Positions 26,301-59,851 of a stretch of DNA of 64,000 nucleotides are shown here, in pieces. The notes under the pieces were generated by a model. That model was not told where the DNA came from and made no database searches. It saw only the letters and a program-made list of their open reading frames with translations. The DNA lies in NCBI RefSeq assembly GCF_000002075.1, contig NW_004797332.1:1562618-1626617 (forward strand), written 5' to 3'. Source of the stretch: Aplysia californica. Its lineage: Eukaryota. Numbering within the stretch: position 1 is the first letter of the stretch; the number at the start of each line of letters is the position of its first letter. The position numbers were made by a program, and so were the translations under genes.

Positions 26301-29300
26301 CCATCCACCCTGTCGCTGCTAAGATATCCTTTCTCTGTCCTCCAAAAGACAACGCAAGCTGCAGGAGACAGTACTGGCTGTGAAACAACTGGACACCAGC
26401 ATGAAGAACCTGAGCCGCTGGTTGTCGGAAGTGGAGGAAGAGCTCACCGAGGTCATCTCGTACCGAGACAGCAACCTGCGAGAGATCCAGTCCAAGCTGC
26501 ACCACACACAGGTAAACTGTTTACCTACTAAGAGTTGTCTTGTAAGCTAGGAGCAATGTTTGTTCTGGTCGACCTCTTTTTCTTTTTACAAACAGCTGAG
26601 CAGACATATTCTCTGGTAGACTTCCTTTTTTTCACTATAAACAACTGAGTTTAAATATTATTCTCTGGTCGACCTCCTTTTTTCCTTTAGAAACAATTGA
26701 GCATATGTCTGTTGTTAATCTGCTGTAGTTATAGACCCAAATATTTAGTGGCAAAACTTTCTTGTGTGGGTGGCTGGTGGATGCTCTGATGTGATTTGCT
26801 CCTTCTTTCCTATCAAACGTCTTTCATCCTTTTCTCTCCTCCTTTTTTTCTTTGCATGTAACTGTAACTCACTAGTAACGCCTCTAACATTTAGCACTTG
26901 TGTAATGTATTTGTGTTGCAAGTTCTATAAAGCTCATATAAAAATTTAACTAAAACCTCTCTAAAAAAAGATTGATCATTTTCTGTTGACTTATGCAACA
27001 CTGGTTTTGTATAATTAGTCATATTCTAACTACAATGTCAGTTTTTGAAATAAGGTAGACTATTAAAATTCAGTGTGAAATCTTAAAATGATATCAATCA
27101 ATTAAAATTGACTTTTGTTCTTTCATCTTAAAGAATCTCAAAGATGATTCAGTTTATATCCCAAGAAGGCATGGTTTTTTGCTGCTTTTTTACTCAATAA
27201 AGTATAATTAGGATGGCCTTTTACTTTTTCTCACTCTCTTATAATGCATTGATGTAAACTCCTCTCTATTTTGCTTTGCAGGAGCTACAAGAAGACATTG
27301 AGCGACACAGCGCCGGTGTGTCATCCGTGCTGAACCTGTGTGAGGTGCTGCTGCACGATTCCGACGCGTGTCCCACCGAGACGGAATTCAATGCCCTACA
27401 ACACGCCATGCGGAACCTCGAGAAGAGATGGAGGAATATTTGTTCTTTGTCCCCCCAGCGACGCACAAGGTCAGTGCTGCATTTTGTTGTTGTCGCAACT
27501 GTTCTTGGCGTCTTTGTGAGTGCGTCTTCTTCCTTTTTCTGCTCTTCTTTTTGTTCCCGGCACTCATTTTCATATCTTCAGTTAATTCTGCAGGTGGTTG
27601 GAGGGTGCTACTGTCTTACTCTTTTCGAATTCTGAATGACCATTTTTGTGCAGATGTGCTTTTTCTACTCAAACAAACATTCTGTGTTTTAGTCTCAGTT
27701 TTTGCTTGTTTATAGTCATTACATTACAGTGTATCATCAGACTTAGGAAAAGTTACAGGTAGACTTGAGAGCCAAAATTTTTTAATAAATTGAATGATCA
27801 TCGGACTAGATGCACCAATTTTTTTTTCATGGCAAAAACGATCATTTTCGTTAGTGAATGTTTCAAAGTCTGTGTACGTGGTTTTCTAGGGTGGAGGAAA
27901 CCTGGCGAATGTGGGAGATATTCCGCGAGGATTGTCATAAGTTCTCTGACTGGCTGACAGAGACGGAGAGTGAAGTTCGCCACCATGAGGGAGAGGTGCC
28001 CAACATCAGAGTTGCCAAAGAGGAGATCAGGAAATATGAGGTATGAACCATAGAATGTGGGTGGCTAGAGGGTGATCTGGTGTGGTTGGCTCATTCTTTC
28101 CTATCAAAAGTCCACTGTTCTTATCACTCATTCTTTTCTTTCTTCCTTACTCTTTAGTAACACCTCTAATCTTCGGCACTTATATATATAATTTAATTGC
28201 ATTGCAAGAGCTGTAAAACTCTTGCTAAAACAATAAAAACATAGAATTCCATTCATAACTCCACTATTGGCTTGATTATGGCACCAGAAACCAACCCTAC
28301 AGATCTTACCACACACCTGAGTATATGCTACCTTCGGCGTTGCCCTTCTGCATACCAAGTGCTTGCCTTAGATTTTTTTTAGCTTTAGTTTTAGTAAGAG
28401 TATTTCGGCAATTGCAATGAAATTAGGTTACATGAGTGCCTAAGATTAGTGGTGTTACTAGAAAGTAACATATAAAGCAAAGAAAGAGGAGAAATAAGGG
28501 CGATGAATTTTTGATAGGAATGGAGTAAATAGAGCTACTAACCCGAAGGGGTTCAGGTAATGGATTTGATAGGTTTAGGATAGCAAGGCTCAACGGGTTA
28601 AGAGTGAGTGATTTAGCATGTAATTAAATGGTATCATTCCCTTTTTTATAATGGTTGTATTTTCTCTAAGTAGTTTAATCAATTAAAACAAATGAATTAC
28701 TGATGCTTGACACAAGCTAACATTCTGCTCTGGAGGTCTTTTTTCATTCTTGTGCTCCACTTCATATTACATTTGTTAGTCGTTAGAATTTGAAAAAAGG
28801 TTCAAAAGGAATTGATCCTGAATTCTTAATGATGATGAAGTTATAGAGACCTCTATGGCAAAATGCACTTTATCCATTTACTACAAAATCGAGAAAAATG
28901 GGGAAAAAAACTTGTTCTCCGGAAACAAAAATATAAAGAAAACACAATTTTACCATCAAAATATTTGAGGGGTACGCTGCATTTTTAGAAAGAAAAAAAT
29001 GTTCACAACAATTCTTTTTATAAGTTTATAGAGCGAATGAGGTTTCAAAATGCCCAGATTTTTGCATACATTGTGATCTGTAATGGAACCCTACATATGA
29101 AGATGCTTCTTGCAGTCTAAAAACTGTGGACTCAAAAGCTGCATCTTTCATAAAGCTAAGTATCCTCAAATCTGATAGTGAAGGAAGGTTAGTAAGGAAT
29201 ATTATTGAGAATTTTTGCACTTGCTATTTTTCAGAACCTCCAGAAGAAGGTCCATGACCATTTGGGTGATCTTGAACTCATCAACCGACAGTACAGACAA

Positions 29301-32300
29301 CTCGCTAAAGAAGGTCGAACTGACACAGATGGTTCGCTCAAGGTCACGATGACCGACCTGAACAATCGGTGGGATGCTCTGCAGCTTCGTGTCACCGAGG
29401 TAAGATAAGGGTTTCAAATATTGTCTTTGTGATTAAAGTCGTATGTTGTCTTTCATCCCATCAAAACAGTAGTTATTCAACATTTTCATTATCATTCTTG
29501 TGAAAGATATTTTCATGCACCCTACATCTTTGATTGTTAAAACTTTTTTGTTTATTGATAATGGATTGTAGAGATGGTGTTCATAATGAAACAGGCCCTC
29601 TAATGTAATCAGTTTAATCTATTTTTTTTCTCAGCCCAGGATCAGTTCTAAATTGTGCCAATAGAGGCATAAAAAAGAAACCACATAAAGGGGTTTTGTC
29701 TTACTTTCTCAAAGAAATGCAAATAATTGTTTTCCATGACTTAAGAAAATGGAATTAAAAATACCTTGCCTTCCAATTTCAGATCATGAAGACGCTGCGC
29801 CATTCCTCCAGCATCCGACAAGACTTTGACGCAACACGCATGTCTCTCATGACGTGGCTGACTGAGGTGGACGCCCAGCTCGCAAATCTTCAAGAACTGA
29901 CCAGCATTGATCTGGAAACAAAGGTCAATGAAATCAGGGTGAGTTGTTAAAGTGTGATAAGTCGATTATTTTTCTATTGGATTCCTCATGTAGGTTGGGG
30001 GTTTTTTGGTGCATCTAAATAACCATTTCAAAAATGTAATCTGTACCTCTACTATAAATAATTTACCCTCAGCTTTTTCACCGAGAGCATATTGTAAGTC
30101 AAAACTTTAAAGGTACAAAATTTATATATCACAATTAGCCAGAACAATGTAGGGTGGAAAAATGACTTTGTATTTTGTATTTTCTTTATTTCCATCTTTG
30201 CAAAATACATATCATACTCCCAAGATTAGCTTTTCAAATTGCATTTCAAACCGACATCATCTCTGGTCATTAGCTCAACACTTACATCCATTATCACTAT
30301 GTAAAAGAGTCTAAAGTAGGTCACATTCTCATCATCATTCAGTCTCAAGGACGATGTGCAGTTTCATGTGAATTTGGGGAAGCTGAGGCTAGTCTCTTCA
30401 TGTGTAGGTGGTTAGTTTTGATATTCTTCAGCTATAAGACTACATCAAAGAAAAACTAACATTTATACTTATCAATCAAAAAGAGCTGTAGTAGTGTCTG
30501 GCAATGGTATGAATTCTTGATTCGAAAAAAAAAAAAAAGCTTGCATCCCAAATTTCATCTTCAATCCAATCCACAGCGCATTGAGGATGAAGTGCACACC
30601 AAGAGACACAGGATGGAGTACTTGGACCAGGCGGCTGTGTATCTGATGCAGAAGGGAGACAGTCAAGAAGCCTTACGTGTTCAGAGAGAGCTGGATGAGT
30701 TCCGCGTGTACTCTAAACGCGTGTTGCAGCGCGTCGTCACTACACAACTGTACATTGAGAGGATGATGGTCGCCCAAGTATGTCGCCAGCCACTCATATC
30801 GTTATATTTCTTTTTTGTTTTTAATTTCGAGTTGTGATGAACATATTGAAGGCTAGCTGTTCAAATTAACTAAGCCCAGAAAGCAAAGTTTTTCAGGAGA
30901 GGGAAAAAACTGTTACCTTCTTTTAATTATTATACCAACATTAGGTATTTTTTTCCTCCTTTTTTTATACATTTAGAATTTGAATTTCGACAAAATTGTT
31001 CTTGAGCACATGCAACCAATACCACAGATTAAGAAACTGCAGTTTTTTTAATGTTCAAAATGTTGGGCTTAGAGTAGAATTACAGCTGGCTGACGATGTG
31101 CATCTTTTGGCCTGCACAAAATCAGAACTATAGGAGGAACTATCAGAGACATGATTCAGTCTGTTTTCAAGAGTATTGTTTGCTCTCACATCATTACAAA
31201 GGTCAAAAAAGAACTTTGTAAACAATTCATAACCTTTCCTTAAATTAAGCGACCTATTTATAGTCCCCCCATTTGTTGACAAAGTGATGGAAATTAAATT
31301 TACAGAAAACAATCCTGTTTACTTTTTGGAAGTCATGGTTGGTGGTCAGATCTACGGTCAAAGCAGTGCACTCACTGGTTCAGCCAGCCTGTTATTTCCT
31401 TCATTCGTCTATACATCTTTGTATTGTTTGGCAAGAAGCATTGAGACTCCATACTTTTTTTCTTTTAATTACATATTTCATTGGTAGATTCACTATATTT
31501 CATCTTTGTGAGAGAAGAAATATACTGATTATTAAGATATGGTATAGATGGTATAGATGAGGTCATGTTTCATCATAAAGAACTTTGAAGAGGATTCAGT
31601 TTATATCATAAGGAGGCATGGTACTTTGTTGCTCTTTGACTTGTCGTGTCACTTTTAAGAAGAAGTGATCAGAGATACCCCCACCCAAATTTCTTTCAGG
31701 AAATTATGATAATATGTGAGGCATCGTGGTGAAATCAGGCGCTCATCAAAATTATGAAATCAAAGAAATCAGCATCTTATTGGCCAATGGACAATTTTTT
31801 TATAATTTTCTTTTTTTTTGGCTCAACACCTTTTATGTCTAATTAAAAACACATTTCTGTGTGTATTTTTCTGTAAAACATTGATGAAAGGCACAAAAAA
31901 TGTAAATTTTTTATTTCCAAGCACTATTATGCTATGGAAGTTACCAAACTTTGGTAGTCATTTTCTCAATAATTTTACCTTTCAAACCAGGCGTCCATGA
32001 CCTCCTTAAATCGCAAATATCTCGACTTCTATTCAACATAGATCAATATTTTTGTTCATCAAAAGGAAGGCGAATGAACAGGCTTTAAGATAATACCAAT
32101 ATTCCCATAGGCCTAAAAATTGACGAGCACTTGATTCCATCACCTCCTGACAAATATATTGATTATCTAGTATAAATGGTGTAGATGTTTCATCAGAAAG
32201 AATTTTAAAGAGGATTCAGTTTATAGCCTAAGGAGGCATGGTACTTTGTGTCTCTTTGACTTATCATCTCATGTCAGTTTTAGGAAGAGGTCATCAGTGA

Positions 32301-35300
32301 TAACCCCCACCCATATTTTTTTCTCAAATTTTAATAATCTTTTTCTTTACATCTAGGTGGAGTGGATGGTTGGCGGGTGCTATAGTGTCGTTTGCTCCTT
32401 TTTCCTATCAAACATCTATCGTCCTGATCTCTCCTCCTTTTTTGTGTTTGTTACTCTCTTGTAACACCTCTAATCTCTGGCACTTATATGACCTTATTGT
32501 GTTGCAAGTTCCGTAAAACTCTTACTAAAACTATTTTTTAAAAACAACCTAGGTGGAGGACCTTCCCTCGAGTGTGGATCGTCTCCGAGAGTTGAGAGAA
32601 GCAGAAGCGACCGCCACACTGAGTCAGGTGGAGGAATACCTCAAGACGTCCCCTCCTGAATCACCACCTATGAGGAAAAGAACGGACGCATCACCAAGTC
32701 GCGTGACCATCCCCCCAGCACTACGCACAAGCTCCCCGATTGGCAGGCCAGGGTCACCGTCCAGAAGGTCACGATCGCCATCCCCCAGAAGGTCAAGGTT
32801 GCCAGGGAGCGGTTCTGGTTCGTCAGCAAGGATGAGTCCAAGACGATCATCATCCCCATCTAAAGTCGCCTTAGACATCATGGATGGAAGAGGTGACTAG
32901 CATTAGGAACATTGTGGCTCAGTTCTTTAGGACAGACCTCCCTCTTGGCTTGAATTAATTGAAACATTCCTTACACTTGGCGAGGTTGGAGGGTGCCATA
33001 TATAGGTCCTACTTCTTTTCTTTCTCTCTGTTGTTTCTTTCTGTCACTCTTACTTTTTCCCAGCACTAAATGACCATAATTATTATTGTGTCAATGTGTT
33101 TCTCTTTACCCAGACTCGGACACTTTCTCCTTTTTGGTCTCTGCTCGGATTGTTTTTCATCATGTTCCAATTTAATAGTTTCCATGACACTCTGAGAAAG
33201 ATGGCACTTATTGTTTTTGTCAAAACAAACTTTTAGAAATTACTGGGCACAACAAGGTATGGATTGCAAAACGCATAGAGCTTACTGTTGAGTGGGGATA
33301 TGTGCTATGCAAAATGCTATTTTTTCTTTTATTATTTATTCTTATTATTTGCATCCAGCAGTGGAAGGACAGTGCTTGGACCATTGTACTGCAGTAGTAT
33401 CTTTTGTTTGTCTTTCTTGCTTCATTGCCTTGTTGAACAACAGTGTGGATGGTTGGTGGGTGCTCTGGTGTGGTTTGCTCCTTCTTTAACTATCAAACAT
33501 CTATCGTCCTTATCTGGCAACACCTTCAGTATTTGGCACCTATATGACCTTATTGTGTTGCAAATGCTGTAAAACCCTTATTAAACTAAGCAGAACAATA
33601 ATCAATGTGCTGATGCGCTTTTCAGTATCTCAACTGACAAACATTTGTTTGTGCTCGTTGACAGAGTCTCCGCGACATGACCTTGGGGATCTCGAGCGCT
33701 CGGCAAAGATTGATGTCCTCATGGAACAGCTGGTGGAGTCACTGGACGACTGCAACGTCAAACTGGCCAGGCTGGAGGCAACCATGAGGTCCCAGGGCTC
33801 TGATGCTGAACACATGGTGAGTTGTAGTGAGGGGAAATTGTCGTTTTGTTGTGGTATGATCAGACAGAACATAAATATGGTGAGTTATAGTTAGGGTAAG
33901 AGTTATAGTTAGGGTAAGAGTTATAGTTAGGGTAAGAGTTATAGTTAGGGTAAGAGTTATAGTTAGGGTAAGAGTTATAGTTAGGGTAACTGCCATTTGT
34001 TAAGCTATGGTCAAAGATCTTGCCACTGATGCAGAACAGATGTTGAGTTGTATTAGGGAGAACCACCATTTGTCATAACATTAATATCCTCTCCCCCGCT
34101 TTTCTCCTGCTACTACAGATGCAGCTGATGGTGGAGTGTGAGGTGGCGGTGGACAATGTGCGGAGACTGGACCGCCTGCTCAAGACAGAGACCAGGGTGG
34201 ATGTCATTGCCAGCGCTGATGCAGAAGTCAGATGTAAGCTTTTCATCTGGTTTTTTGGGGGTTTTTTGCTCCTTAAGTGGTCAGGCTCCCTGAATCGCAA
34301 CCCTAAGTCGTGGGTTCCAATCCTGTCAGGGCCCAACTTTGTGTCCTTGGGAAAGGCACTTTGCACAAATTCCTCACTCCACCCAGGTGGGAATGAGTAC
34401 CCAGCTATAGACAGCGAAAGATCTTGTCAGTTTGATAGTGTTTGAGCGCTTAATCAGCTGCTTGCATTGTATGTTTCCTGGGGAGCTGGGAATGTCTCTG
34501 AGTGTTCTATGGTCTGCTGAGGTAATAATATAGTGTAAAGCTTGCTGTTGAGCGTGGGTATGAGCTATACAAATGCTATTTATTATTATTATGCATCTAA
34601 TCTTTGTCTAGTGTTGTTTTATGTTCTTATTTACCTTTTTTCTAGTACTTTGATTGGATTTCTTTAACTCCTTTTTAACTCCCAACTGTTCTGATTTCAT
34701 ACTATTCCTCTTTAGAAGAATTGTCACCCATGAAAATATGAATAACCTACAAATCTTCAAATTGATAGCGAGAAGTCATCTTAATTTGTAAATATGTATT
34801 AAATTTTACTTACTACGTAAATTTTTAGATGAAAATATTTTAAGAGTGTTAAAGGAGCTTCTTACTAGAAAGATACATATATCTTGTAAGTGAACTGTTA
34901 GGCTAATGCAACGACTGATGATTATCAAGAGTCTCTGGAGACAACAATCAACCAAAAAAAAAAAAAAGATTCAACCTCCCAAGAAAGGGACCATGTTAGA
35001 AAGAATAGGTGCATTTGTTTAAAGTAGTCAAATGTGAGGAGCCAGAAGAAAATCAGTCGGATCTCACTAGTCCTGGAGCTAAGATATTACCAAACGGAAT
35101 GAAAATATTTGTTTAGAATGGAAAATGAGTTACTTGCATAATGAAATACTCCAACATCTTATTTAAGTGTTCTGAAAAAAAAATACTTGAAAAACAACTA
35201 GAAATGTGTTTTTAAACGATTTCTTAACATGTTGGTGAAAATGGAATGTTCTGACTTCAAACCCGGATTTCTCGCAACTGAGTACCAGGGAGATGACTGG

Positions 35301-38300
35301 CTTAATATGCTTATATCTTAGCTTCTAATTAACATATTTCAAGTCAGCAAACTCCCATTTACTCAAGAGATATTGAATATCTGATTGTTCATATTGCTAT
35401 TTTCACAACTGTTTGATTTTCCCATAGCACCTTGGGTGTATCTGACTGTGAAAAGGGAATTGATTAACTTAATAACTATAATTAATCATTATACATTATA
35501 TTTTGTGCAGTGGTGATACAGAGGTGGGAACACCTACAGAGGCGAGCCCTAGACCAGGACTTGAAGGTATCCCAGGAGAGACATGACCTGGTCCAGTTTG
35601 CCGGCGAGCTGGACAATATGCTGGCCTGGCTGGACGAGGCGGAGGCTTTGCAGGCCACCCACCGCACGCTCCCGTCGGACATCAGCCAGCTGGACAGAGT
35701 TGTCAGGCAGTACAAAGTGAGTATGATTAGAGACAGTTGTCAGTCAGTGTGAAGTGAGTATGGTGAGAGACAATTGTCAGACAGTGTGAAGTGAGTATTT
35801 TGAGAAACAATTGTCAGACAGTGTGAAGTGAGTATGGTGAGAGACAATTGTCAGACAGTGTGAAGTGAGCATGGTTAGAGACAATTGTCAGACAGTGTGA
35901 AGTGAGTATGGTTAGAGACAATTGTCCGACAGTGTGAAGTGAGTATGGTTAGAGGTGATATTTTGACTAGGTACAATTGTCAGACAGTGTGAAGTAAGTA
36001 TGGTTAGAGACAGTTGTCAGACAGTGTGAAGTGAGTATGGTCAGAGACAATTGTCAGACAGTGTGAAGTGAGTATGGTTAGAGACAATTGTCAGACAGTG
36101 TGAAGTGAGTATGGTTAGAGACAATTGTCAGACAGTGTGAAGTGAGTATGGTTAGAGACAATTGTCAGACAGTGTGAAGTGAGTATGGTTAGAGATGATA
36201 TTTTGACTAGGTACAATTGTCAGACAGTGTGCAGTGAGTATGGTTAGAGACAATTGTCAGACAGTGTGAAGAGAGTATGGTTAGAGACTGTTGTCAGACA
36301 GTACAAAGTGAGTATGGTTAGAGACAATTGTCCGACAGTATAAAGTGAGTATGGTTAGAGACAATTGTCAGACAGTATAAAGTGAGTATGGTTAGAGACA
36401 ATTGTCAGACAGTATAAAGTGAGTATGGTTAGAGATGATATTTTGACTAGGTACAATTGTCAGACAGTGTGAAGTGAGTATGGTTAGAGATGATATTTTG
36501 ACTAGGTACAATTGTCAGACAGTGTGAAGTGAGTACGGTTAGAGATGATATTTTGACTAGGTACAATTGTCAGACAGTGTGCAGTGAGTATGGTCAGAGA
36601 CAATTGTCAGAGAGTGTGAAGTGAGTATGGTTAGAGACAATTGTCAGACAGTATAAAGTGAGTATGGTTAGAGATGATATTTTGATTAGGTACAATTGTC
36701 AGACAGTACAAAGTGAGTATGGTTAGAGATGATATTTTGATTAGGTGCAATTGTCAGACAGTGTGAAGTGAGTATGGTTAGAGACTTCGTTACCTCAAAT
36801 TACAAAGCACTCTCTGACATATTTGGCCGTTTTGAGTTACTAGGACAATGAGGTCAGAAACCAAATGTTCAATCTTCTTTATAAAAATCATAAGATTATA
36901 CAGAGTCATTATCAAGATATTCAAAGAACTGCATGCTTTTTAAGAACTGCATGCGAAAAAGCTTGACATGATGTGAAACTCAAAATCTTTTACATCAAAT
37001 TTCTCAAAGCTAGGTAGGCCTACTGAGCAGACAGAACTTTGTAATTCTGAGACAGCGACTTGTCAGACAGTGCAAAGTGAGTATCATATTTTAACTCGGT
37101 AGAGATACAATATAACACAGTCTTTTACCAAATCACGCTAAATAAGCTTTGAATGAAGACACAGAGAACGAAAATATAAGTGACATCATAACTTCCTTTT
37201 CCCCAGGACTTCCTGGTCCAGTTAGAGTCCAAGAAGAGCACAGTAACATCGATCAATTTGCTCAGTCGTAACTACCTCAGTATGAAAACGGCAGAAACAA
37301 GACAGCTGAAGGCAAAACTGAATGAGATGAACCAACGGTGGGAACTTGTTCTCACCAGAGCCACAGATATCCAGAGAGATCTACAGGTAAGACGTTTGAT
37401 CTTCCAACAAGGCAAAGGCAGCCAGTAGAACTGTTATCTGCATACTCAGTACCAGTAATCGCACTAGTTAAAGTTATCATGGTGATTTATAGTTTGAGTT
37501 TGTCGCACTGGCTGAAGATAAAACACAAGTTGCTAATGCTTTGAGTAAATCTAACAGTTAATCTTCCTTTTCAGAGTGTGTAAATAATTTGTAAACAATA
37601 AACTAGGAAACAGAGTTGAATTCCGCTGAAAGAACAAGAATTTGTGAGTCCCAAGAATATGAATTGGTTTAATAAATCTATCAATTACTCAACAACTTTA
37701 TCCCCTTGTAAGTTCTATGCGTCACTGTATGGAAATGAACTGAAGCCTTGTCCATTCTCACACTTTCTCTATTTTGTGTTCAGCGATCGCTGATACAGTG
37801 CCAAGAGTTCCACCACACCATCCATGACTATCAGTTGTGGCTCGAAGGAATCGAGGCCAAAGTCCGGCAGTGCGAGGCCATTCCTCCCAACGCAGAGGAG
37901 TCTGCTCTCTGGGCCAAGTATGCCATACTCATGGTAAGTTCAGGACACAATATTCTTTGTGTTAATGGCTTTGATTACACAGTCAACCACGCACATAGTG
38001 AAATTGGCAGCGAGGCAAAAACCTTTTCACTATGTACGAATTTGGCTGGGCACATGTTTTAAATACAAAGAATATAACGCATTGGAAAAAAATCTGTTCG
38101 TTGTATGCGTGCTAGATCGTATATTTGGCTTCCTTTTCATAGTGAGATTTTATTTTTCAGGGTAAGGTAGAAGTCACTTCTTGTTCTCCAGGTGATCTCT
38201 TGNNNNNNNNNNNNNNNNNNNNNNNNNNNNNNNNNNNNNNNNNNNNNNNNNNNNNNNNNNNNNNNNNNNNNNNNNNNNNNNNNNNNNNNNNNNNNNNNNN

Positions 38301-44300: not shown

Positions 44301-47300
44301 TCTCCATGCTCTAAATGGCTGTTGCAGGTGGTGTGTGGGTGGTGTGCGGGTGTTCTGGTGTGGTTTGTTCCTTCTTTCCTATAAAAAATCTATTGTCCTT
44401 ATCTCTCTTCCCTTTTTGTGTTTGTTACTCTCTTGTAACACCTCTAATCTTCAGCACTTCTAAGACCTTATTGTGTTGCAAGTGCCGTAAAACTCTTACT
44501 AAGGGACTGGATGGCTGCTGTCTTGTCAGCATGTTTTTCTTTCTCCAATTCTTCAACTCAGTGCTTTCCCAGTACCCGGTATACAAATATTTCATCAGTT
44601 CCATTCTAGGTAAAAATCCCTGTTTGTGTACGTTCAAAAGCAGAGCACTTTGCCCAGTACATGGAAAGAGCAAAAGAAAAAAGAAAAGAAGGAAATGCAA
44701 ATAAAGTTAACTGCACATGTATAGTCACATCTGATCATCGGTGGATATTTTTTTTTTTGTCAACAAGTTGCCTTCCCTGCATTATAGGTTTAATACAAGT
44801 ACTTATTATTCCGTTGTCAGACAGACTGTTGTGGCAAGTGTTGTTTGCTGCTCATCAACTCTTTCTACATACGGTGTCTTTCCTGGTGCCTTCCTAGTGT
44901 CTTCCATTGTCTTTTTAAAATTTTATACATTGCTCGTTCATTCTATGTCATCGTACAACACTTACATTCTACTGCTGATGTCCAGCCGCACATCAGCCTA
45001 CATCTGCAGCCCAGCTGACTTAAAAGGCGAGAGGGATTTTGTCTCGCGCATTATGTGTTATTTTTTTTTTATGTAATCTAAAATTTTCTGTGGTTTTCAA
45101 TAGGTTCATAATTTTTTTGCAGTATAGTCTAAGTGATTTTAATGAATGAAAGACTTGGAAAGATCTGCAATTTTTTTTTTATGTGTGTGACTGCAGAGTA
45201 AGTCTACTCATATATAATTTAAATGACTGTGTATTAACTTTTACTTTGTGAAAAGAAAAAAAAAGGACGTAGAAGACTGACCTGGCCATCGTCAAGAGAT
45301 ATCAGGATCAAGACCTAACTCAGCAAAAGCTACTAATTTGGCACAATATAACTGAATTGACACTCGACCTTGAAGAGCAAATATGTTTGATTTTAAAGGT
45401 CAAAGTCGAATTAACCACATCCAGTAGAAGTTGTACCAGAAGGGCAACTGTTGCCCCATCTATGAAGGAACATTTGGCCAACACTAAATAATTATTTGGG
45501 GTTTTGGCTTTTTTTTTAAAGAAAAAATTGATACCCTCAGATGATGTGCGTTCGTTTTTCTTGTTAAGTAAATCTGTTGTCCTGCAATCTTTTTTTTTTA
45601 CCCACATATATGTGTCTGATCCCAGTGTCTTAAATACGTGTTGTGTATTGAATGCAGTTGTATGTTTTTGTTTAGGAGGTGAGGTGGGTTGTTTGTTGTT
45701 TGGGTTTGTTTGGGTTTTGGGAGGATTTTTTTATGGGGGCGGGGATGGAGCTGTTGTTGTTTTTTTAGTTTAGTTTTTTGTTTTTTGTTGGGGGGGTTTT
45801 TTTGGGGGGGAAGGGAGAGAGAGAACAATATTCTGGCACTGGTTCATTTATACTAGTATTTTGGGGTTAATTTCCCACATCTACACTGGTTTGCCAAAGG
45901 TCAAGAACCTTTAGTGCAGACCTGTTTTATCCCATTCATTCCAGGTTGACCCTGTTGGTGGTTGGTTTTGCTCCGATGTGGTTCTCTCCTTATCTCTCCT
46001 TCTTTTTTGTGTTTGTTGCTTTCTTGTAACACCTCTAATCTTCAACACTTATATGACCTAATTGTGTTGCAAGTGCCGTAAAATGCTTACTAAAACAAGG
46101 TTGTCCATATCAGATAGGGGGGATGCTTCACTTCTCATATAAATTGTACCGTGCCAATAAAGTAAAACATATTACAGTTGGTGAAATCGCTACCATTGTT
46201 CAACATGGTTACAAACTACAGAGCTTTTGCTTCGAGTGGGTGGTTGGTGGGTGCTCGGGTGTGCCTTTCCTATCAAACATCTAATGTCCTTATCTCATCC
46301 TATTCTGTTCTCTGTATGTTACCCCCTAGTAATAGTAACACTTCTAGTCTTCGGCACTGATATGACTTACATGTATTATATTTGTGTTTCAAGTGCTGTA
46401 AAACTCTAACTGAAAATAGAAAAGTTAATTCATGACAACTGTACAGCGCTACTCATAAGTGTTTATAGGAAGAGGGAACAGAACTAGCCAGCCCACTGAA
46501 GTAGAAATAAGCTCTTCGGACGACTGTGTTTAAAAGTGAAGCTTTTTTTTCTATTGTTCATCTTTGCTCATTCTGTTTATTCATCCCATTTCTCCATTGT
46601 TTGTGAAATGTTTTTGAATGGCTATGATTAGAATCTAAACCTATAATGTCAGTTTATAGAAAACGAAAAGACAAAATTGTAAAATACTATTGTATTTCCT
46701 CTAGAATGTGGTTCGTGGCGGGGGTTTTTTCGGGGTTTTTTTTGTTTTTACGTGTTTTCAGTTTGAAGACACTGATCAAAAAGGGAAGAAAAGAATCGGG
46801 GAATTCTATTTTTGTTCTGTTGACTACTTTTTTTCGGATTTACAGTGTTCGGTTTTAGGGGACTCCACAGTATTTTCACAGTTTCCTTTCATTTTAAGTT
46901 GTTGAGCAACAATTTAGAAATCTAAATAGTGATAGTCCCAATTGATTTGTAAATTTATTCCAAGGGGATTGAATAAGATATAGAGGATTGGTCTATTTCC
47001 AAATCCTTGAGGGCAACCCTTATGCCTGTGTTGCTCTGTATCACTTGGTTTATTTTGTTCACATCTACTCAGTCTTAACATCTTTCATTATTATTTCCTG
47101 GCATCTCTTCCATGCGTGCTCATTCAAAGCAGTGCAGCATTACGGTGTGCTCACGTGGTATTTCTTACTAACTATAGTCTTTTTGTGCTGACCTGTGTTG
47201 TCTCTTCGTGCTTCGGCAGGGATGTTGATTCCTCTCGATGTTGCTGGACTCCAAGTTTATTGTAACTCACACAGTTTGCCATTTCTATTTTGTAAATAAC

Positions 47301-49175
47301 TTATTTGTGTAGGCTGTAGAAATATTTCAGGTATCTCTCGTGACTTTAGAATTTGTCATCGTTGCTTTGTAGCGTACTTTTTATGTTTATGTATATTCGT
47401 GTTTTAAAACATTCGTATACATAGATCTGTGCATACATGTGGACATGTTATCTCTTTGCAGATCTTTCTTTGGTTATAGAAGCTGCTGTATGAGTGTCTG
47501 CTTACAAATAAGATTACATGAATATCATAGGCTATCTATCAGTGATGTTCTTCTTGCTTTGTTTAGTTTGCAAAAGTCCATTATATATGTCTCTATGTAG
47601 GCCTACTTGTATCCTGCACATGAAGACAAGCACATTCATGACAATAATTTTCCAGCTTCGGCCTTACTGACACTCAGTGCCAAGATGTACTCTCATGGGA
47701 CAACTGGTTATGGAAAAATTGTAAACAGTCGGAATCTACCTTTCCTTTTCAGTTCTGCCATCATTTTCTAAAGTACAGTTTTTACAGTTTCACAGGAGAG
47801 TCAAAATTCGAATGCTATTACCGAGAAAACAATTGTATTTGCTTTAAAGATCACAAGGAAGTTATCAAAATTGTATTCTTAAAAATATTGACTTGAGATG
47901 TTTGCAAAGAGTTTGTTTTTTTGGTAATATCATTCAGTTTTTTTACTCCTGTAAAATTGTACAAATCAGGTCAACGTTCAAATGCATATACTGCGTTTAT
48001 TAAAGGACAACAGAGTTGCTCTGTAGACATAATTTTGTGTGTTTCTGTGAGTGTAGACGAATGATCCCGTATTCTATGAACTGAAAATAATCCCAAGTCT
48101 TTAAATATTTGAGTTAACGTTATTATGATAAGGGGGTCATGGAGATTGAAGAATACATAATGCATTCCGTTTTCTGCATCATTAAAGTTTGAATGTTTCC
48201 CAGCCCTGCAAGGTTTGACTATAACTATAACATTAGACAGCCGATGGATAGACTGAGCGGGGTTGTGTTACTCAGTACATTTTTTTGCTTCTTTTCTTTT
48301 CTGGAATATCGGTACTTTCATGGTCTCATGGTGTTAATATATACAATGTTATTTGATTTACAAGAAAACTGTGATATATTAAGTTCACTCAGTTTGTAAC
48401 TTGTAAGCAACTTTATGGGTGGTAGTCAGGGTTACAAAGTATTTTAGTACCAAAAACCCATCACATTATGTTAACATAATATCCTTCGGTTCTAATAATG
48501 ATAACCCACCATATTTTGCATGCTTCACAGTTTGCATGGCTTGCACATGTTTTGGAGTCAAATTGTTAAGTTAATAGTTGTATTAAGAATATTTGTACTC
48601 ACTATACATACTCATATTTGAATAGATGGAACTACCTAAAAATTTGTAAACACATTGTGTATTACTTAATTGAAATGATGATAAGTTATTTTGTCAAGCG
48701 TTAAATTAGTTCAAGTAAAGGTTTGAGTTTGAGTTATCAGGGCTGTCACATACTTTTTACCAAAAACTTAATGCAAACAAAAGAACAGACGTGAACTTCA
48801 AAAAGATGAGTAACCAGTCTCAATGTTTTCTTCTCATCACCAAATCAAATTCCTCTGTAGTGCAAGATTAATGATACAGGTACAATGGAGCTGTTTTAAA
48901 TTTCAGTATGTTGTTTTTTTTATTTCCACAGTTTGAGTACAGATCATGAGACCGCAAGAGAAGTTTCGGCGCTCACAAAATCTCAAGTCCGTCCATCGTT
49001 ACTTATGCGTGTAATACGTGCTGCCCTGCCTATTCAACTGCTGTTACTACTGTTACTTCTCTTAGCCTGTCTTGTTCCTGTGTGTGAAGATGAGTACAGC
49101 TGCCTGCTCAGTAATAACCTGCGACACTCCCTCTCTCCAATGTTGCGATACACTGATGGGGCCCCACCCACCTAG
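627..49175 (+). CDS. SYNE1: Nesprin-1-like giant KASH protein (SYNE1/MSP-300/ANC-1 family), 3' portion; 46 exons, 5'-incomplete
   Basis: 46 GT-AG exons with consistent phases sum to 8331 nt and read as one open frame of spectrin-repeat sequence. Segments such as ELQEDIERHSAGVSSVLNLCEVLLHDSDAC, WRNICSLSPQRRTRVEETWRMW and LELINRQYRQLAKEGRTD closely resemble the vertebrate nesprin-1 C-terminus (recalled, not aligned). Ends in TM + KASH. Confidence 0.95.
879..1310. mobile_element. MITE family C (~40-bp imperfect TIRs)
   Basis: ATATGTG..GAAATCAGGCGCTC / GAGCGCATGATTCC..CACATAT; homologous to 31712-32157 and 58063-59851. Confidence 0.75.
1833..2137. mobile_element. piggyBac-like MITE (TTAA flanks)
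   Basis: TTAA|CTCTTTATCT ... AGATATAAAG|TTAA; second copy at 2411-2685. Confidence 0.7.
2223..2384 (+). CDS. SYNE1: nesprin exon w2 (EAKKDQEK..DENR)
   Basis: gtcag|GAG..AGG|gtaaga; phase 0/0. Confidence 0.88.
2411..2685. mobile_element. piggyBac-like MITE, second copy
   Basis: TTAA|CTTTTTATCTCCG ... CGGAGATAAAAA; colinear with 1833-2137. Confidence 0.7.
3131..3259 (+). CDS. SYNE1: nesprin exon w3 (EIQEEING..VHLQ)
   Basis: tttcag|GAA..CAG|gtaaac; phase 0/0. Confidence 0.88.
3706..3926 (+). mobile_element. tRNA-derived SINE; related copies on the minus strand near 51740-51900, 52960-53165, 54195-54345
   Basis: TGGTGTAGTGG A-box and GAGTTCGATTCC B-box, followed by a non-tRNA body repeated elsewhere. 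Confidence 0.7.
3970..4182 (+). CDS. SYNE1: nesprin exon w4 (TELGQFKL..DIHK)
   Basis: cacag|ACG..AAG|gtaagt; phase 0/0. Confidence 0.88.
4736..4933 (+). CDS. SYNE1: nesprin exon w5 (ELATDIKQ..RKPG)
   Basis: ctcag|GAG..GGG|gtaagg; phase 0/0. Confidence 0.88.
5000..5190 (+). mobile_element. Penelope-like element terminal-repeat remnant (boundaries approximate)
   Basis: Carries the minimal hammerhead typical of PLE pseudo-LTRs, followed by an ATAAAA/T-rich segment. Confidence 0.45.
5058..5094 (+). ncRNA. Minimal type-I hammerhead ribozyme motif (Penelope-like element type), possibly inactive
   Basis: GTTC-CTGAGGA-T-GCCC(gttga)GGGC-GAAA-CATT-GAAC: stem I GTTC/GAAC, CUGANGA and GAAA core, 4-bp stem II; stem III looks 2 nt short. 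Confidence 0.65.
5495..5671 (+). CDS. SYNE1: nesprin exon w6 (ELVKISLH..QQYQ)
   Basis: tacag|GAA..CAG|gtatgt; phase 0/0. Confidence 0.88.
6333..6428 (+). CDS. SYNE1: nesprin exon w7 (SALQNVSGW..RQNE)
   Basis: cccag|TCC..GAG|gtgtgt; phase 0/0. Confidence 0.85.
6916..7230 (+). CDS. SYNE1: nesprin exon w8 (KLQKEIRS..SNNQ)
   Basis: tacag|AAG..CAG|gtcagc; phase 0/0. Confidence 0.88.
7337..7523 (+). repeat. (CT)n-rich simple repeat next to a gap
   Basis: Direct reading. Confidence 0.9.
7524..7741. other. Assembly gap (others at 38203-38405 and 63639-63811)
   Basis: Runs of N; the first two are intronic and flanking exon phases stay compatible. Confidence 1.
7782..7928 (+). CDS. SYNE1: nesprin exon w9 (KIEVQLKK..LHRR)
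   Basis: tctag|AAA..CGG|gtaagg; phase 0/0. Confidence 0.88.
8205..8430 (+). repeat. ~28-bp minisatellite (~8 copies) running into a splice acceptor
   Basis: AAATTCAACCATGTCTTTTTCACACTCT-like units. Confidence 0.85.
8443..8613 (+). CDS. SYNE1: nesprin exon w10 (AMEKKASL..TAHK)
   Basis: tccag|GCT..AAG|gtgagt; phase 0/0. Confidence 0.88.
9120..9274 (+). CDS. SYNE1: nesprin exon w11 (DFFSDLEV..HGQ)
   Basis: cccag|GAC..AG|gtcagt; phase 0/2. Confidence 0.88.
9920..10063 (+). CDS. SYNE1: nesprin exon w12 (LERLTRQW..KLA)
   Basis: accag|A..AA|gtaaga; phase 2/2. Confidence 0.88.
10325..10511. mobile_element. ~190-bp MITE family A (CAGTCAAAC-like ends); other copies near 155-330, 1358-1550, 4188-4390, 22920-23360, 56200-56390
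   Basis: Shared core TTGTCTTAGACAGGTGGA.TCTTGGACA.TGTCATT and end CAGGTT(T/C)GACT in six places, both orientations. Confidence 0.7.
10615..10788 (+). CDS. SYNE1: nesprin exon w13 (YKQLQAEL..ELK)
   Basis: ttcag|A..CG|gtgagt; phase 2/2. Confidence 0.88.
12332..12494 (+). CDS. SYNE1: nesprin exon w14 (TETLGDQL..EKVL)
   Basis: ctcag|G..CTG|gtatgt; phase 2/0. Confidence 0.88.
13055..13381 (+). CDS. SYNE1: nesprin exon w15 (EFKKEVEG..KKYK)
   Basis: tacag|GAG..AAG|gttagt; phase 0/0; in-frame alternative acceptor 60 nt upstream. Confidence 0.87.
13788..13976 (+). CDS. SYNE1: nesprin exon w16 (GYKIELSS..ATLE)
   Basis: tccag|GGT..GAG|gtatgg; phase 0/0. Confidence 0.88.
14719..14859 (+). CDS. SYNE1: nesprin exon w17 (SLQSKWGD..KDCK)
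   Basis: gacag|AGT..AAG|gtgagt; phase 0/0. Confidence 0.88.
15045..15267. mobile_element. MITE with 25-bp inverted repeats
   Basis: GTGCTGACAAAATGAGTTACTTCTC ... GAGAAGTAACTCATTTTGTCAGCGC (24/25). Confidence 0.75.
15450..15639 (+). CDS. SYNE1: nesprin exon w18 (ALQQQLQA..NLLT)
   Basis: cccag|GCC..G|gtgtgt; phase 0/1. Confidence 0.88.
16097..16239 (+). CDS. SYNE1: nesprin exon w19 (MFGQWARY..DKLK)
   Basis: cccag|AC..AAA|gtgagt; phase 1/0. Confidence 0.88.
16335..16567 (-). mobile_element. RTE-clade LINE 3' fragment
   Basis: Minus-strand translation TTGKFDRKEGRGRQRE..KWRSMIAHASRQGTG* plus (GAT)n tail parallels the element at 62683. Confidence 0.75.
17162..17328 (+). CDS. SYNE1: nesprin exon w20 (GLQSELRN..LSD)
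   Basis: caaag|GGC..AG|gtgaga; phase 0/2; an in-frame CAG acceptor 9 nt downstream (start 17171) is an alternative. Confidence 0.8.
17911..18070 (+). CDS. SYNE1: nesprin exon w21 (CAKFEGCL..SKSK)
   Basis: tgcag|G..AAA|gtaagg; phase 2/0. Confidence 0.88.
18609..18833 (+). CDS. SYNE1: nesprin exon w22 (KLQKELDN..NAFE)
   Basis: catag|AAA..GAG|gtaaag; phase 0/0. Confidence 0.88.
19535..19698 (+). CDS. SYNE1: nesprin exon w23 (LVKKFLDQ..NDL)
   Basis: ctcag|CTT..GG|gttagt; phase 0/2. Confidence 0.87.
19708..19815 (+). repeat. (AAT)n-like microsatellite
   Basis: Direct reading. Confidence 0.9.
19921..20078 (+). mobile_element. SINE fragment (Nin/Deu-domain-like) with a stem-loop 3' tail
   Basis: GGACATTAAAGATCCCTTGGTGGTC motif; tail GTGCTC-ATATGACC..GTTGC-GAGCGC similar to family B. 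Confidence 0.45.
20334..20577 (+). CDS. SYNE1: nesprin exon w24 (YRLALNEA..RKCK)
   Basis: tctag|G..AAG|gtgagt; phase 2/0. Confidence 0.88.
21387..21713 (+). CDS. SYNE1: nesprin exon w25 (QFENEMYS..EKVK)
   Basis: tccag|CAA..AAG|gtaaga; phase 0/0. Confidence 0.9.
22755..22862 (+). CDS. SYNE1: nesprin exon w26 (TTQYEFKL..AEIK)
   Basis: ctcag|ACC..AAG|gtaatg; phase 0/0. Confidence 0.88.
23564..23776 (+). CDS. SYNE1: nesprin exon w27 (NTLDQLQR..NKCR)
   Basis: atcag|AAT..AGG|gtagat; phase 0/0. Confidence 0.88.
24468..24664 (+). CDS. SYNE1: nesprin exon w28 (DIATSFLN..AMF)
   Basis: tccag|GAC..AG|gtgagg; phase 0/2. Confidence 0.88.
25297..25414 (+). CDS. SYNE1: nesprin exon w29 (WTNLGERM..KLET)
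   Basis: ttcag|A..ACG|gtaagt; phase 2/0. Confidence 0.88.
25719..25885 (+). CDS. SYNE1: nesprin exon w30 (EYKEEMME..MDF)
   Basis: cacag|GAG..AG|gtaaga; phase 0/2. Confidence 0.88.
26349..26511 (+). CDS. SYNE1: nesprin exon w31 (QRKLQETV..HHTQ)
   Basis: aaaag|A..CAG|gtaaac; phase 2/0 (AAG acceptor). Confidence 0.85.
27282..27469 (+). CDS. SYNE1: nesprin exon w32 (ELQEDIERHSAGVSSVLNLCEVLLHD..RRT)
   Basis: tgcag|GAG..AG|gtcagt; phase 0/2; highly nesprin-like segment. Confidence 0.92.
27890..28040 (+). CDS. SYNE1: nesprin exon w33 (VEETWRMW..RKYE)
   Basis: tctag|G..GAG|gtatga; phase 2/0. Confidence 0.9.
29235..29399 (+). CDS. SYNE1: nesprin exon w34 (NLQKKVHD..RVTE)
   Basis: ttcag|AAC..GAG|gtaaga; phase 0/0. 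Confidence 0.9.
29783..29938 (+). CDS. SYNE1: nesprin exon w35 (IMKTLRHS..NEIR)
   Basis: ttcag|ATC..AGG|gtgagt; phase 0/0. Confidence 0.9.
30577..30777 (+). CDS. SYNE1: nesprin exon w36 (RIEDEVHT..MVAQ)
   Basis: cacag|CGC..CAA|gtatgt; phase 0/0. Confidence 0.88.
31060..31140 (+). mobile_element. Decayed LINE reverse-transcriptase fragment
   Basis: Translates VELQLADDVHLLACTKSEL*E, resembling the (Y/F)ADD region of non-LTR RT. Confidence 0.4.
31712..32157. mobile_element. MITE family C copy
   Basis: Colinear with 879-1310 over its full length. Confidence 0.75.
32363..32531 (+). mobile_element. Retroposon 3'-end family B (~170 bp); copies near 6623, 9357, 15924, 26765, 28056, 28383(-), 33386, 44334, 45955, 46234
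   Basis: Shared TCCTATCAAACATCT..GTAACACCTCTAATC..GGCACTTATATGACC..GTTGCAAGTGCCGTAAAAC..ACTAAAA; this copy is flanked by a 10-bp direct repeat. Confidence 0.8.
32553..32892 (+). CDS. SYNE1: nesprin exon w37, SP/SR-rich linker (adaptive-domain position)
   Basis: cctag|GTG..G|gtgact; phase 0/1, needed to join w36 to w38; acceptor is duplicated upstream at 32356. Confidence 0.82.
33665..33816 (+). CDS. SYNE1: nesprin exon w38 (SPRHDLGD..AEHM)
   Basis: gacag|AG..ATG|gtgagt; phase 1/0. Confidence 0.85.
33882..33989 (+). repeat. 18-bp minisatellite x6 (GAGTTATAGTTAGGGTAA)
   Basis: Six identical units, each containing TTAGGG. Confidence 0.95.
34119..34233 (+). CDS. SYNE1: nesprin exon w39 (MQLMVECE..EVR)
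   Basis: tacag|ATG..T|gtaagc; phase 0/1. Confidence 0.87.
34270..34592 (+). mobile_element. tRNA-derived CORE-like SINE with (ATT)n tail; truncated copies near 5990-6270, 22030-22105, 23035-23312, 33255-33350
   Basis: A/B-box-like head (AAGTGGTCAG..GGTTCCAATCC), CORE-like GTGTCCTTGGGAAAGGCACTT..CCACCCAGGTG, tail GCTATACAAATGC(TAT)n shared among copies. Confidence 0.75.
35511..35716 (+). CDS. SYNE1: nesprin exon w40 (VIQRWEHL..RQYK)
   Basis: tgcag|TG..AAA|gtgagt; phase 1/0. Confidence 0.88.
35699..36785 (+). repeat. Minisatellite, 37-bp and 55-bp units, ~26 copies, derived from an exon/intron junction
   Basis: Unit ATTGTCAGACAGTGTGAAGTGAGTATGGTTAGAGACA; the 55-bp variant adds ATGATATTTTGACTAGGT. 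Confidence 0.95.
36786..37058. mobile_element. MITE-like element; inverted copy at ~54460-54695
   Basis: Imperfect TIRs CTCAAATTACAAAG / CTTTGTAATTCTGAG; body matches the reverse complement of 54460-54695. Confidence 0.7.
37207..37386 (+). CDS. SYNE1: nesprin exon w41 (DFLVQLES..RDLQ)
   Basis: cccag|GAC..CAG|gtaaga; phase 0/0. Confidence 0.88.
37784..37933 (+). CDS. SYNE1: nesprin exon w42 (RSLIQCQEFH..AILM)
   Basis: ttcag|CGA..ATG|gtaagt; phase 0/0. Confidence 0.88.
38533..38751 (+). CDS. SYNE1: nesprin exon w43 (DLNGELLH..RGNT)
   Basis: acaag|GAT..ACA|gtatgt; phase 0/0 (AAG acceptor). Confidence 0.82.
39964..40101 (+). CDS. SYNE1: nesprin exon w44 (PSSFDLSE..IARQ), Ser/Arg-rich pre-TM linker
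   Basis: atcag|CCG..CAG|gtaaac; phase 0/0; SRSSTPHR resembles vertebrate SGRSTPNR (recalled). Confidence 0.82.
41922..41977 (+). CDS. SYNE1: nesprin exon w45, 56-nt bridging exon (FLMRIASPFLPSSSQDRD)
   Basis: cacag|TTT..AA|gtaaat; open frame that converts phase 0 to the phase 2 required by the KASH exon. Confidence 0.6.
48932..49175 (+). CDS. SYNE1: nesprin terminal exon: TM helix + KASH domain
   Basis: ttccacag|T; RVIRAALPIQLLLLLLLLLACLVPVCEDEYSCLLSNNLRHSLSPMLRYTDGAPPT* matches the KASH consensus (Cys -23, Pro -11, Tyr -7). Confidence 0.96.
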
Positions 49176-58062: not shown

Positions 58063-59851
58063 TATTTGTCACAACAGGGTAGAATCATGCGCTCTTCAGT
58101 TTTTTAGCATGAGGAGTTTGGCTTTTTTTGTTTTATTTTTTGTACCCTGTAGCATGAGGAGTTATTGGTATCACCTGAGCTTGTTCATTAATTCGCCTTG
58201 CTTTTGTTGAAACAAAATACCCATCTATTTTTAAAAGAACTCCAGATATTTCTGAATGATTGAAGAAGATGGGGTCACATGGTTTCAGAGGTAAAAAGAA
58301 TGAGAAAATGGCCACCAACTTTTAGTAACTTCAATAGCTTGAGAGGCCTTGAAAACTGAAAATTTACATATTTTGTGCCTTTAATTTTAATCAGCATTTT
58401 TAGGAAAATTCACATGGAATGGGTTGTTAAACGGACAAAAAAGACGTTGAGCCAAAAAAAAAAAAATTGCCCAACTGGATTTCCTTATTTTGAGGAGCAC
58501 CTTATTTCACCACGATGCCTCATATATGGCATACATGAAATGAGGTCAGAAATTTGGCTCTATTGGGGGTGGGAGGGGTTGTCATTGCGGTGGAACCTGG
58601 TTCCTGTCAAATTTTAGGAAACAGACCAATCAGTACCGGTATTTTTCCGACTGCTGAGAATTTTTCTAAACAGTTTTTACACAGAAACCTGCTCCATCTT
58701 TTAAAGAACCCATTTCAAGGTGGTTTTAACAGAAAAATGTTATTTAAAGCTAAAAAATTATATATGTTATTTTGTAGAACGACCGATGAACATTCAGCTT
58801 TAAATGTCAAATAACTTTTTCTCCCTAATTTCACATGTAACGGTAACCCCTCTTTCTTAAATCGCACATCTCGACTACAGTGGAATCCTGTTATAACGAG
58901 AGGGAGGGGACCGGAGCAAAATGTCCGTTATAGCAGGATTTTCGCTATAAGGGACCCAGTAATAAATTCAAGGGAACTGTAAAGTAGACTTAATCTATGA
59001 GTTTGGTGTTCTGTTTATTTCCTTTTGCTATCTCCCCTGATATGGATTTTGTTTCAACATGACCTCTAGGTCTTAATTGGTCAAAAATCGAATCAGGTTT
59101 CTTTCTCTAGCGCTAGATCTAGTGATGTCGACTGACAGCTCGGTGTTGCCGATCAGAAAAAAGGGTTCTGGGCTAACTCACCCGCTGTGTTTTCCCCCAC
59201 CCCACCTCACCCTGAGGTGCATTCTGTCTGCTTGCGTACGTCACACATGCTCCATCCATCACATTGCTGTGACCTCTCCATCCCTGCATCGGAGAAGTGA
59301 GAGGCATGGTAGGCCTTGATAATCTAAATCTAAACTAGGCTTACACTGGCCTATCACGCGATGCGTTCTGCTTGTCTGCGCATGCCACACCCTCCCTACT
59401 CAGTCGCTCCGGCCTTCATTGTTGACGCACATGGGCTCTCCCATTCTTTGTTTCGCTAAGTCACCAACAAGTTTCTCAACTGGTGCGGTTTTACATTATG
59501 TATAACTGGTCTATGCACTGTGCACAGCAGCAGGAATATTCCGCTATAACCGACTCTCTTGTTTGTCTGATAGCGCTATAGCAGTATTTCATTTACAAAG
59601 GTAAAGAGGAGAAAAAAACGGGGTTTTAGAATATTGTCTTTATAACAGACTTCTCGTTTTTTCCGGACTCGTTATAAGTGGACTCCACTGTACTAGTTTT
59701 AAAAATCAATTATTTTTTTTCAACTATAAGTTCAAGAAAAAAGCACATACACTTTGATTTATCTAATGGCAATGACTCGATTAGTCGTGTCGGATATGAT
59801 ATACGCTAAAAAATTGACGGGCGCCTGATTCCACCACTCTGTGACACATTT
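58063..59851. mobile_element. Longer family-C-related TIR element interrupted by a nested MITE
   Basis: Ends TGTCACA..GAATCATGCGCTCTTCAGTTTTT / AAAAATTGACGGGCGCCTGATTCCACC..GTGACA; internal AATCGCA..ATCTCGAC shared with family C. Confidence 0.6.
58878..59690. mobile_element. Tc1/mariner-superfamily (pogo/Tigger-like) non-autonomous element
   Basis: TA|CAGTGGAATCCTGTTATAACGAG ... CTCGTTATAAGTGGACTCCACTG|TA: 23-bp imperfect TIRs with TA duplication. Confidence 0.85.

Follow-up and report, generated by a model that had tools for sequence, protein, structure and literature searches.

A SINE-like element between two copies of a splice acceptor in an Aplysia nesprin-type gene, likely through target-site duplication

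Introduction

Among the closest described systems is the Merle allele of the dog, in which a SINEC_Cf element lies at the intron 10/exon 11 border of PMEL (SILV) with a 15-bp duplication holding the acceptor, according to the sections available of these reports (PMC7349775, PMC6091007, PMC13756887). In Merle as, most likely, at the Aplysia locus described here, a SINE stands at an intron/exon border with a target-site duplication containing the original acceptor; in Merle the normal transcript can still be made from the acceptor adjoining the exon (PMC7349775, PMC6091007, same sections). The two cases differ in orientation and in what the element contributes. The Merle SINE is antisense, its oligo(dT) donates a strong pyrimidine tract together with a cryptic acceptor inside the SINE, and exonisation is in frame, whereas the Aplysia element is sense to its gene and donates only a run of six T (T6), the competitor is the duplicated old acceptor, and inclusion leads to a stop codon. 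A sense SINE that LINE endonuclease placed at an acceptor AG is also described for the AluY of NF1 intron 14 (c.1642-1_1642), where the accessible text of PMC3219598 reports a new and pathogenic insertion that causes exon skipping and is not itself included. In contrast, the Aplysia allele keeps the exon and is apparently old and tolerated.

Duplication of AG|GT is also known as a source of both potential splice sites of a new intron, in transposon-driven intron gain and in introners (PMC3443670, PMC9860276, as excerpted). In the AGGT model an insertion interrupts a coding AGGT and adds an intron (PMC3443670, in the same excerpt); such elements enter exons, whereas the Aplysia insert lies at an existing border. 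Recursive, or ratchet, sites share with this locus a tract and YAG followed by GT within an intron; known ones mostly have strong regenerated donors and are conserved, in the portions seen of PMC8605326 and PMC6110457, whereas the regenerated donor here is weaker than every donor of the gene. The part at hand of a stwintron paper (PMC8469720) contained no matching case. As to the element itself, the MESC SINE of Chlamys farreri (PMC4758252, in extract) is similar by eye in a 3' stem enclosing a TGACCTTA loop, in TAAAAC and in short A-rich repeats. It differs in that the Aplysia element is about 190 nt long, has no tRNA head that we found and shows no resemblance that we saw to the MESC body.

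Results

The gene and the locus

The stretch of Aplysia DNA analysed, a 64-kb window, holds the 3' part of a nesprin-type mollusc gene. Our model, assembled from approximate exon positions and simple splice scores and excluding exons between 40101 and the KASH exon, has 44 exons and 2677 amino acids, free of stops and phase breaks. Its final 1,355 residues can be aligned at 60.5% with the Elysia crispata protein P0002, in which Pfam recognises spectrin repeats. The locus is composed of the following features.

30577..30777, plus strand: upstream nesprin exon (36th in the window model), with a phase-0 donor GTATGT at 30778 (gene model; spliced contig of run X17)
30778..32356, plus strand: pre-existing intron, complete without the insert in donor, tract and AG (gene model, splice scores, open reading frames of other genomes)
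32337..32356, plus strand: old acceptor with its pyrimidine tract and TAG, which the insert now separates from the exon by 196 nt (score 7.8; 22 of 43 real acceptors lower)
32353..32362, plus strand: 5' copy of the likely duplication, its last 1-3 nt common with the element start (repeat search, copy alignment)
32360..32533, plus strand: body of the SINE-like element, sense to the gene (copy alignment; end pile-ups in four runs)
32462..32464, plus strand: in-frame TAA reached via the upstream AG, 428 nt before the next exon junction
32479..32519, plus strand: 3' stem-loop, then TAAAAC (11 predicted pairs, five with changes on both sides; weak consensus energy of -1.0 kcal/mol)
32523..32529, plus strand: element-borne TACTAAA, a branch-point candidate lying 24-30 nt ahead of the downstream AG (one mismatch to YTRAY)
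32534..32548, plus strand: decayed A-rich tail with the T6 run, sole U-rich stretch for the downstream acceptor (tail comparison, 12 copies)
32549..32558, plus strand: 3' copy of the likely duplication, whose AG at 32551-32552 is the acceptor in the transcript contig (X17 record 9; score 1.0)
32553..32892, plus strand: downstream exon of 340 nt, the longest of the 44 modelled; 536 nt with the upstream AG (gene model, X17 contig)
48945..49172, plus strand: KASH-coding terminal exon, which an upstream-AG product would lack (PF10541, E 5.9e-24)

The upstream exon is 69% identical to residues 798-864 of P0002, and splicing from 30777 to 32553 continues in an open frame (VEDLPSS...). Use of the upstream AG adds 196 nt with an in-frame stop, as originally predicted: we computed 35 codons (VEWMVGG...VTLL) followed by the TAA at 32462. 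The Pfam KASH domain, at about 49000-49170, lies downstream of this stop, in agreement with the truncation ahead of KASH that had been proposed. A membrane anchor in the read-through peptide was considered and rejected, its best 19-residue hydropathy (1.2) falling below the 1.6 usually required. The downstream exon is rich in Ser, Arg and Pro and has no Pfam match over 32553-32892; its start is about 13 residues shorter than that of the Elysia orthologue, ahead of a conserved DRLREL stretch.

The duplicated acceptor

The 10-mer CTAGGTGGAG occurs exactly twice on the plus strand of the window, at 32353-32362 and 32549-32558 (spacing 196 nt), and nowhere on its minus strand, and one copy of the element family lies between the two sites, confirming the earlier description of a 10-nt repeat that brackets a retroposon copy. 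The repeat includes the AG and the exon start on either side of the element, a layout like that of Merle, and its length of 10 nt falls inside the 8-14 nt given for the duplications of the Chlamys MESC SINEs, which have a similar tail, in the extract of PMC4758252.

Chance was assessed in trials in which the left word ended no more than 3 nt from the element start and the right word began no more than 30 nt from the core end. A repeat of at least 10 nt in this geometry turned up in 9 of 19,323 pairs of random flanks and in 0 of 19,323 with the real left flank, while repeats of at least 7 nt arose in 201 and 196 of 19,323, respectively. In the alignment of copies the final 1-3 nt of the upstream repeat copy coincide with the element's own 5' end, so that the strict duplication would be 7-9 nt plus microhomology; loose ends of element reads pile up at the position equivalent to 32362. 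Letters preceding the element 5' end agree at only 0.35-0.40 (727 reads; 357, 105 and 53 contigs). The original prediction had named a repeat belonging to the element consensus as what would overturn it, and the pooled 5' flanks carry no such consensus save the 1-3 shared letters. With chance improbable and the element's 5' consensus set aside, the most likely origin of the 10-nt repeat is that the old splice acceptor was duplicated as the target site. A clear duplication adjoining both ends was found for none of the 11 other window copies, all of which are more diverged than the copy at 32360.

The SINE-like element

Twelve copies of the element family lie in the window. Alignment places the start of the inserted copy at 32360-32362 and the end of its core near 32533, in agreement with the loose-end pile-ups of the runs. 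The element is about 190 nt long and non-coding, and at its 3' end a modest stem-loop is followed by decayed TAAAAC-like repeats. With 12 copies in 64 kb and the same 5' and 3' end pile-ups in four runs, it is a short, non-coding, high-copy repeat with fixed ends; summed read depth over it is very high in the four runs, a figure that is not a copy number. Nine copies were aligned in full, leaving out three that are short or 5'-truncated. The inserted copy is nearest the window majority, matching at 156 of 168 columns (93%) compared with 75-89% for the others, and to be the least diverged of the nine is what is expected of the one with an intact duplication.

The tails are decayed and of the TAAAAC type, their likeness to a published tail being judged by eye only. 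The T6 run is the longest T run among the 12 tails (next T5, the others 1-3), and a CTRA motif lies within the same 24-30 nt range in 15 of the gene's 43 real acceptors. The element gave no Rfam match at gathering score and no ARAGORN tRNA gene, and an exact-pattern scan with its core returned 0 matches in metagenome and viral contigs. A Pol III head (tRNA, 5S or 7SL RNA) was not recognised, and the head may be decayed or LINE-derived; since neither a tRNA nor an Rfam head was found we call the element SINE-like.

The 3' end of the element is closely joined to the 5' end of another copy in many contigs (X5, X10, X17; joints 32533>33444-33450), which points to tandem copies being common elsewhere in the genome; tandem SINEs have been reported in bivalves (PMC11481361, in the part at hand). 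A Helitron-like origin, suggested by the tandem copies, seems less probable, as a retroposon better accounts for the repeat tail and the duplication. Eleven of the 12 window copies are sense to the gene (window 6619-46423; two-sided binomial about 0.006), and no copies were found beyond 46.5 kb in the window. The 3' end of an antisense element holds GTAAGA, the gene's second commonest donor hexamer (6 of 44), which might explain a loss of antisense copies. Two other copies are close to splice sites, one at 28052-28245, 12 nt past the donor of the 33rd exon, and one at 33443-33600, 65 nt before the acceptor of the 38th; the gene model contains no intron made up of any of the other 11 window copies.

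Age of the intron

Once the insert and one copy of the repeat are taken out, a complete intron of 1,579 nt remains in the right phase, compared with 1,775 nt with the insert. The upstream exon as query gave 43 proteins, of which we examined 15 short ones that appear to be read-throughs of the exon predicted from genomic contigs. Similarity stops at Gln or Glu and is followed by Val and unrelated sequence in all 15, with the break at the same codon in five, one codon later in one, three codons earlier in eight and about eight earlier in one. All 15 break at or near the same donor, and the intron is older than the insert. The exon begins VED in the window, VDN in the orthologue P0002 and MED in P0005 (P0001 differs), and the positional match of VDN and MED to VED indicates that the original start of the exon is the one in the downstream copy of the repeat.

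Splice-signal strength

Weight matrices were built on the 43 acceptors and 44 donors of this gene with leave-one-out scoring and are rough at so few sites. The upstream acceptor scores 7.8, against a gene median of 7.1, and is predicted to be mostly unpaired (0.69-0.86). The downstream acceptor scores 1.0, with 3 of 43 real acceptors lower and 427 of 1,729 decoy AGs as high. Pyrimidine fractions of 0.82 before the upstream AG and 0.53 before the downstream AG bear out the strong and poor tracts read there previously, and the T6 run, the only U-rich stretch available to the downstream AG, is consistent with the further suggestion that the element tail supplies its tract. Two other AGs in the intron outscore the upstream AG (9.3 and 8.1) and are absent from the X17 spliced contig, so score alone does not choose the site. 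In the first 80 nt the exon is 0.59 purine with nine GAR words and the insert 0.39 purine with one.

At the upstream site a tract and YAG abut GT as in a recursive acceptor; the score of 7.8 is about the median for the gene and does not imply use. The donor that would be regenerated, GTGGAG, scores 1.4 in unspliced context and 2.3 after the first splice, where the minimum of the 44 real donors is 3.1, and 328-403 of 1,905 decoy intronic GTs (17-21%) score as well. None of the 44 donors of the gene reads GTGGAG (two of them have G at +4 and five have A at +5), and at 2.3 it falls short of the exon donor at 5.4 on this position-weight score from 44 sites. The description of the insert as a precise GT..AG intron thus fits its letters, while its donor lies below all 44 real ones. 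Exonisation of part of the insert was rejected, as none of its 16 GTs scores above 1.5. Folding of the insert as a whole is no more stable than that of shuffled sequences (z -0.97), and with the upstream acceptor predicted not to be buried, structural masking was rejected.

The intron contains a 200-nt direct repeat (77%; 31518-31713 and 32152-32338) bracketing a second repeat element of 450 nt (31712-32161), with relatives at 879-1314 and 58151-58527, minus strand. The first copy of the 200-nt repeat contains the intron's top-scoring AG (before 31700) and the second adjoins the old acceptor tract. Elsewhere in the window are a 17-nt tandem repeat containing TTAGGG (33880-33990) and a 1.1-kb minisatellite with several YAGGT sites (35698-36786).

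Transcript and DNA evidence

Four of 24 sequencing runs (X5, X10, X17 and X24) were aligned. Record 9 of X17 (depth 18) spans 30643-30777, 32553-32890 and 33663-33816, and its junction 30777>32553 uses the downstream AG. Depth in X17 is 18 on exons and 0 over the unique intron sequence 31192-31639, identifying X17 as spliced RNA. This one contig is the splice evidence, and contigs drop rare forms and give no junction ratio. X17 is labelled as another organism, and the insert junctions are covered by none of its pieces listed; it differs from the window at 1 of 627 exon letters (an allele common to X5) and 0 of 151 intron letters. Set against the roughly 7% divergence of the insert from its family, this near identity suggests that the X17 source probably carries the insert. 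The junction 30777>32553 would equally be produced by an empty allele or by recursive splicing.

Contigs of X5, which are DNA-like, cross both insert junctions at depths of 62 and 51, compared with 58-66 in the unique intron, and the insert is apparently homozygous in X5. DNA-like contigs of X10 also cross both junctions, and from the bridging in both runs the insert allele is apparently tolerated. No empty site with a single acceptor is present in X5 or X10 among the joints listed, so the duplication is not proven by comparison; the exon start as an exact pattern was matched by none of the metagenome contigs. The only run of raw RNA reads, X24, shows depth 0 wherever the three exons are unique and is uninformative on junction use. 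Neither a junction intermediate nor saw-tooth coverage nor a lariat at 32357 appears among the joints listed.

Discussion

We consider it fairly probable that the element lies between copies of the acceptor produced by target-site duplication, and that the 1,775-nt intron is removed in one step at the downstream AG with the protein unchanged. The repeat, the element, the reading frames, one contig with 30777>32553 and the insert in two further DNA samples are directly seen. LINE-driven target-primed reverse transcription would have inserted the element and duplicated the acceptor, leaving the element between the two AG copies. The downstream AG may then win through exon definition, by which the purine-rich exon start and the 340-nt length are kept; with the upstream AG the exon would grow to 536 nt and start in pyrimidine-rich SINE sequence. 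The element may help the downstream AG, its TACTAAA serving as branch point and its T6 run as a minimal tract, and leakage to the upstream AG would meet the premature stop and end in nonsense-mediated decay. That a weak downstream acceptor would be preferred over a median upstream one is the one surprising point, and it counts against this simple reading.

Two alternatives deny the duplication or give it another role. The repeat could be a chance 7-nt match extended by the element's own start, the element having merely landed near the 3' end of the intron. The 1-3 nt overlap with the element start would allow this, a 7-nt match occurs in about 1% of trials and also with 2 of 43 other acceptors of the gene, and the copy at 44335 likewise has AGGTGG just before its start. 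However, the complete match is 10 nt, a length never reached with the real flank, it sits exactly where a duplication would have placed it, and the pooled 5' flanks show no such consensus, which makes coincidence very improbable. The original prediction accepted the duplication and saw in it a true intron gain through an exonic AGGT proto-splice site. AG|GT is indeed duplicated, and the segment between the copies starts with GT and ends with AG, but what precedes the upstream AG is intron rather than exon, removal of the insert leaves the complete 1,579-nt intron, the donor position is common to other genomes and no exon separates the two supposed introns. Already contradicted by the gene model and by the reading frames of other genomes, this proposal is hardly tenable: the intron is the older of the two, and exon border and exon count are unchanged. 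The element did not enter a continuous exon, its upstream flank being a complete older intron. As AG|GT was already an intron/exon border and the intron predates the insert, no intron is gained by the insertion, as far as these sequences can tell.

More serious are the alternatives that turn on the upstream AG. With that acceptor intact, of median strength and predicted accessible, and the downstream one weak, substantial use of the upstream AG would be unsurprising: the 196 nt would often be kept, the stop at 32462 would lead to decay or to some KASH-less nesprin, and the steady state would show only the downstream product. The contrast of 7.8 with 1.0, a stop 428 nt before the next junction and the two products of Merle alleles (PMC6091007, sections seen) all agree with such a poison fraction. 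In Drosophila, a regenerated donor weakened at +3 to +8 with AGGT kept leads to inclusion (PMC8605326, portion seen), and the donor here, at 2.3, is below the exon donor at 5.4. Yet the single spliced contig passes 30777>32553 unbroken, a 536-nt exon would exceed the maximum of 340 nt among 44, and the insert seems old and is apparently homozygous in X5, and we regard a sizeable poison fraction as unlikely, if the foremost of the alternatives. Considerably less probable is that the duplication created a working recursive site in one step, with a first splice to 32356 at the old acceptor and the duplicated exon start at 32357 then serving as donor to excise the 196-nt insert precisely. The letters permit this exactly, and it would account for the correct product from a weak downstream site. 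Human recursive introns range down to 0.2 kb (median 3.4 kb; PMC10156609, as excerpted), with which a 1.8-kb intron is compatible, and donor strength alone is not always decisive and did not account for every reporter (PMC8605326, same portion). Against it, GTGGAG is used by none of the 44 donors and scores below every one, matches the U1-complementary consensus at 4 of 9 positions compared with 5-8 in real donors, and would have to act in the second step together with a weak acceptor. The site is also one spacer base off the minimal Y5+N0-4YAGGT motif (PMC10156609, same excerpt), 59 intronic YAGGT occur in the gene's 43 introns, and the donor letters are constrained by ancestral Val-Glu coding, the freed copy showing no shift towards GTRAG. 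In the full-text literature searched, with most subscription journals outside its scope, no title or abstract describes a recursive site born from target-site duplication.

Were the recursive reading true, the origin of a ratchet point could be dated at this locus, a recursive site would be seen to arise at a stroke, and SINEs could land harmlessly on any acceptor followed by GT. On the reading we favour, one-step removal at the downstream AG, the insert carries no bearing on intron gain. The layout itself is already known from dog PMEL and human NF1, to which the Aplysia case would add a sense-strand and apparently tolerated example. Two identical AG|GTGGAG acceptors stand 196 nt apart and the one with the poor tract is apparently used, a natural experiment in which exon definition could be weighed against the strength of the tract in a gene of an invertebrate.
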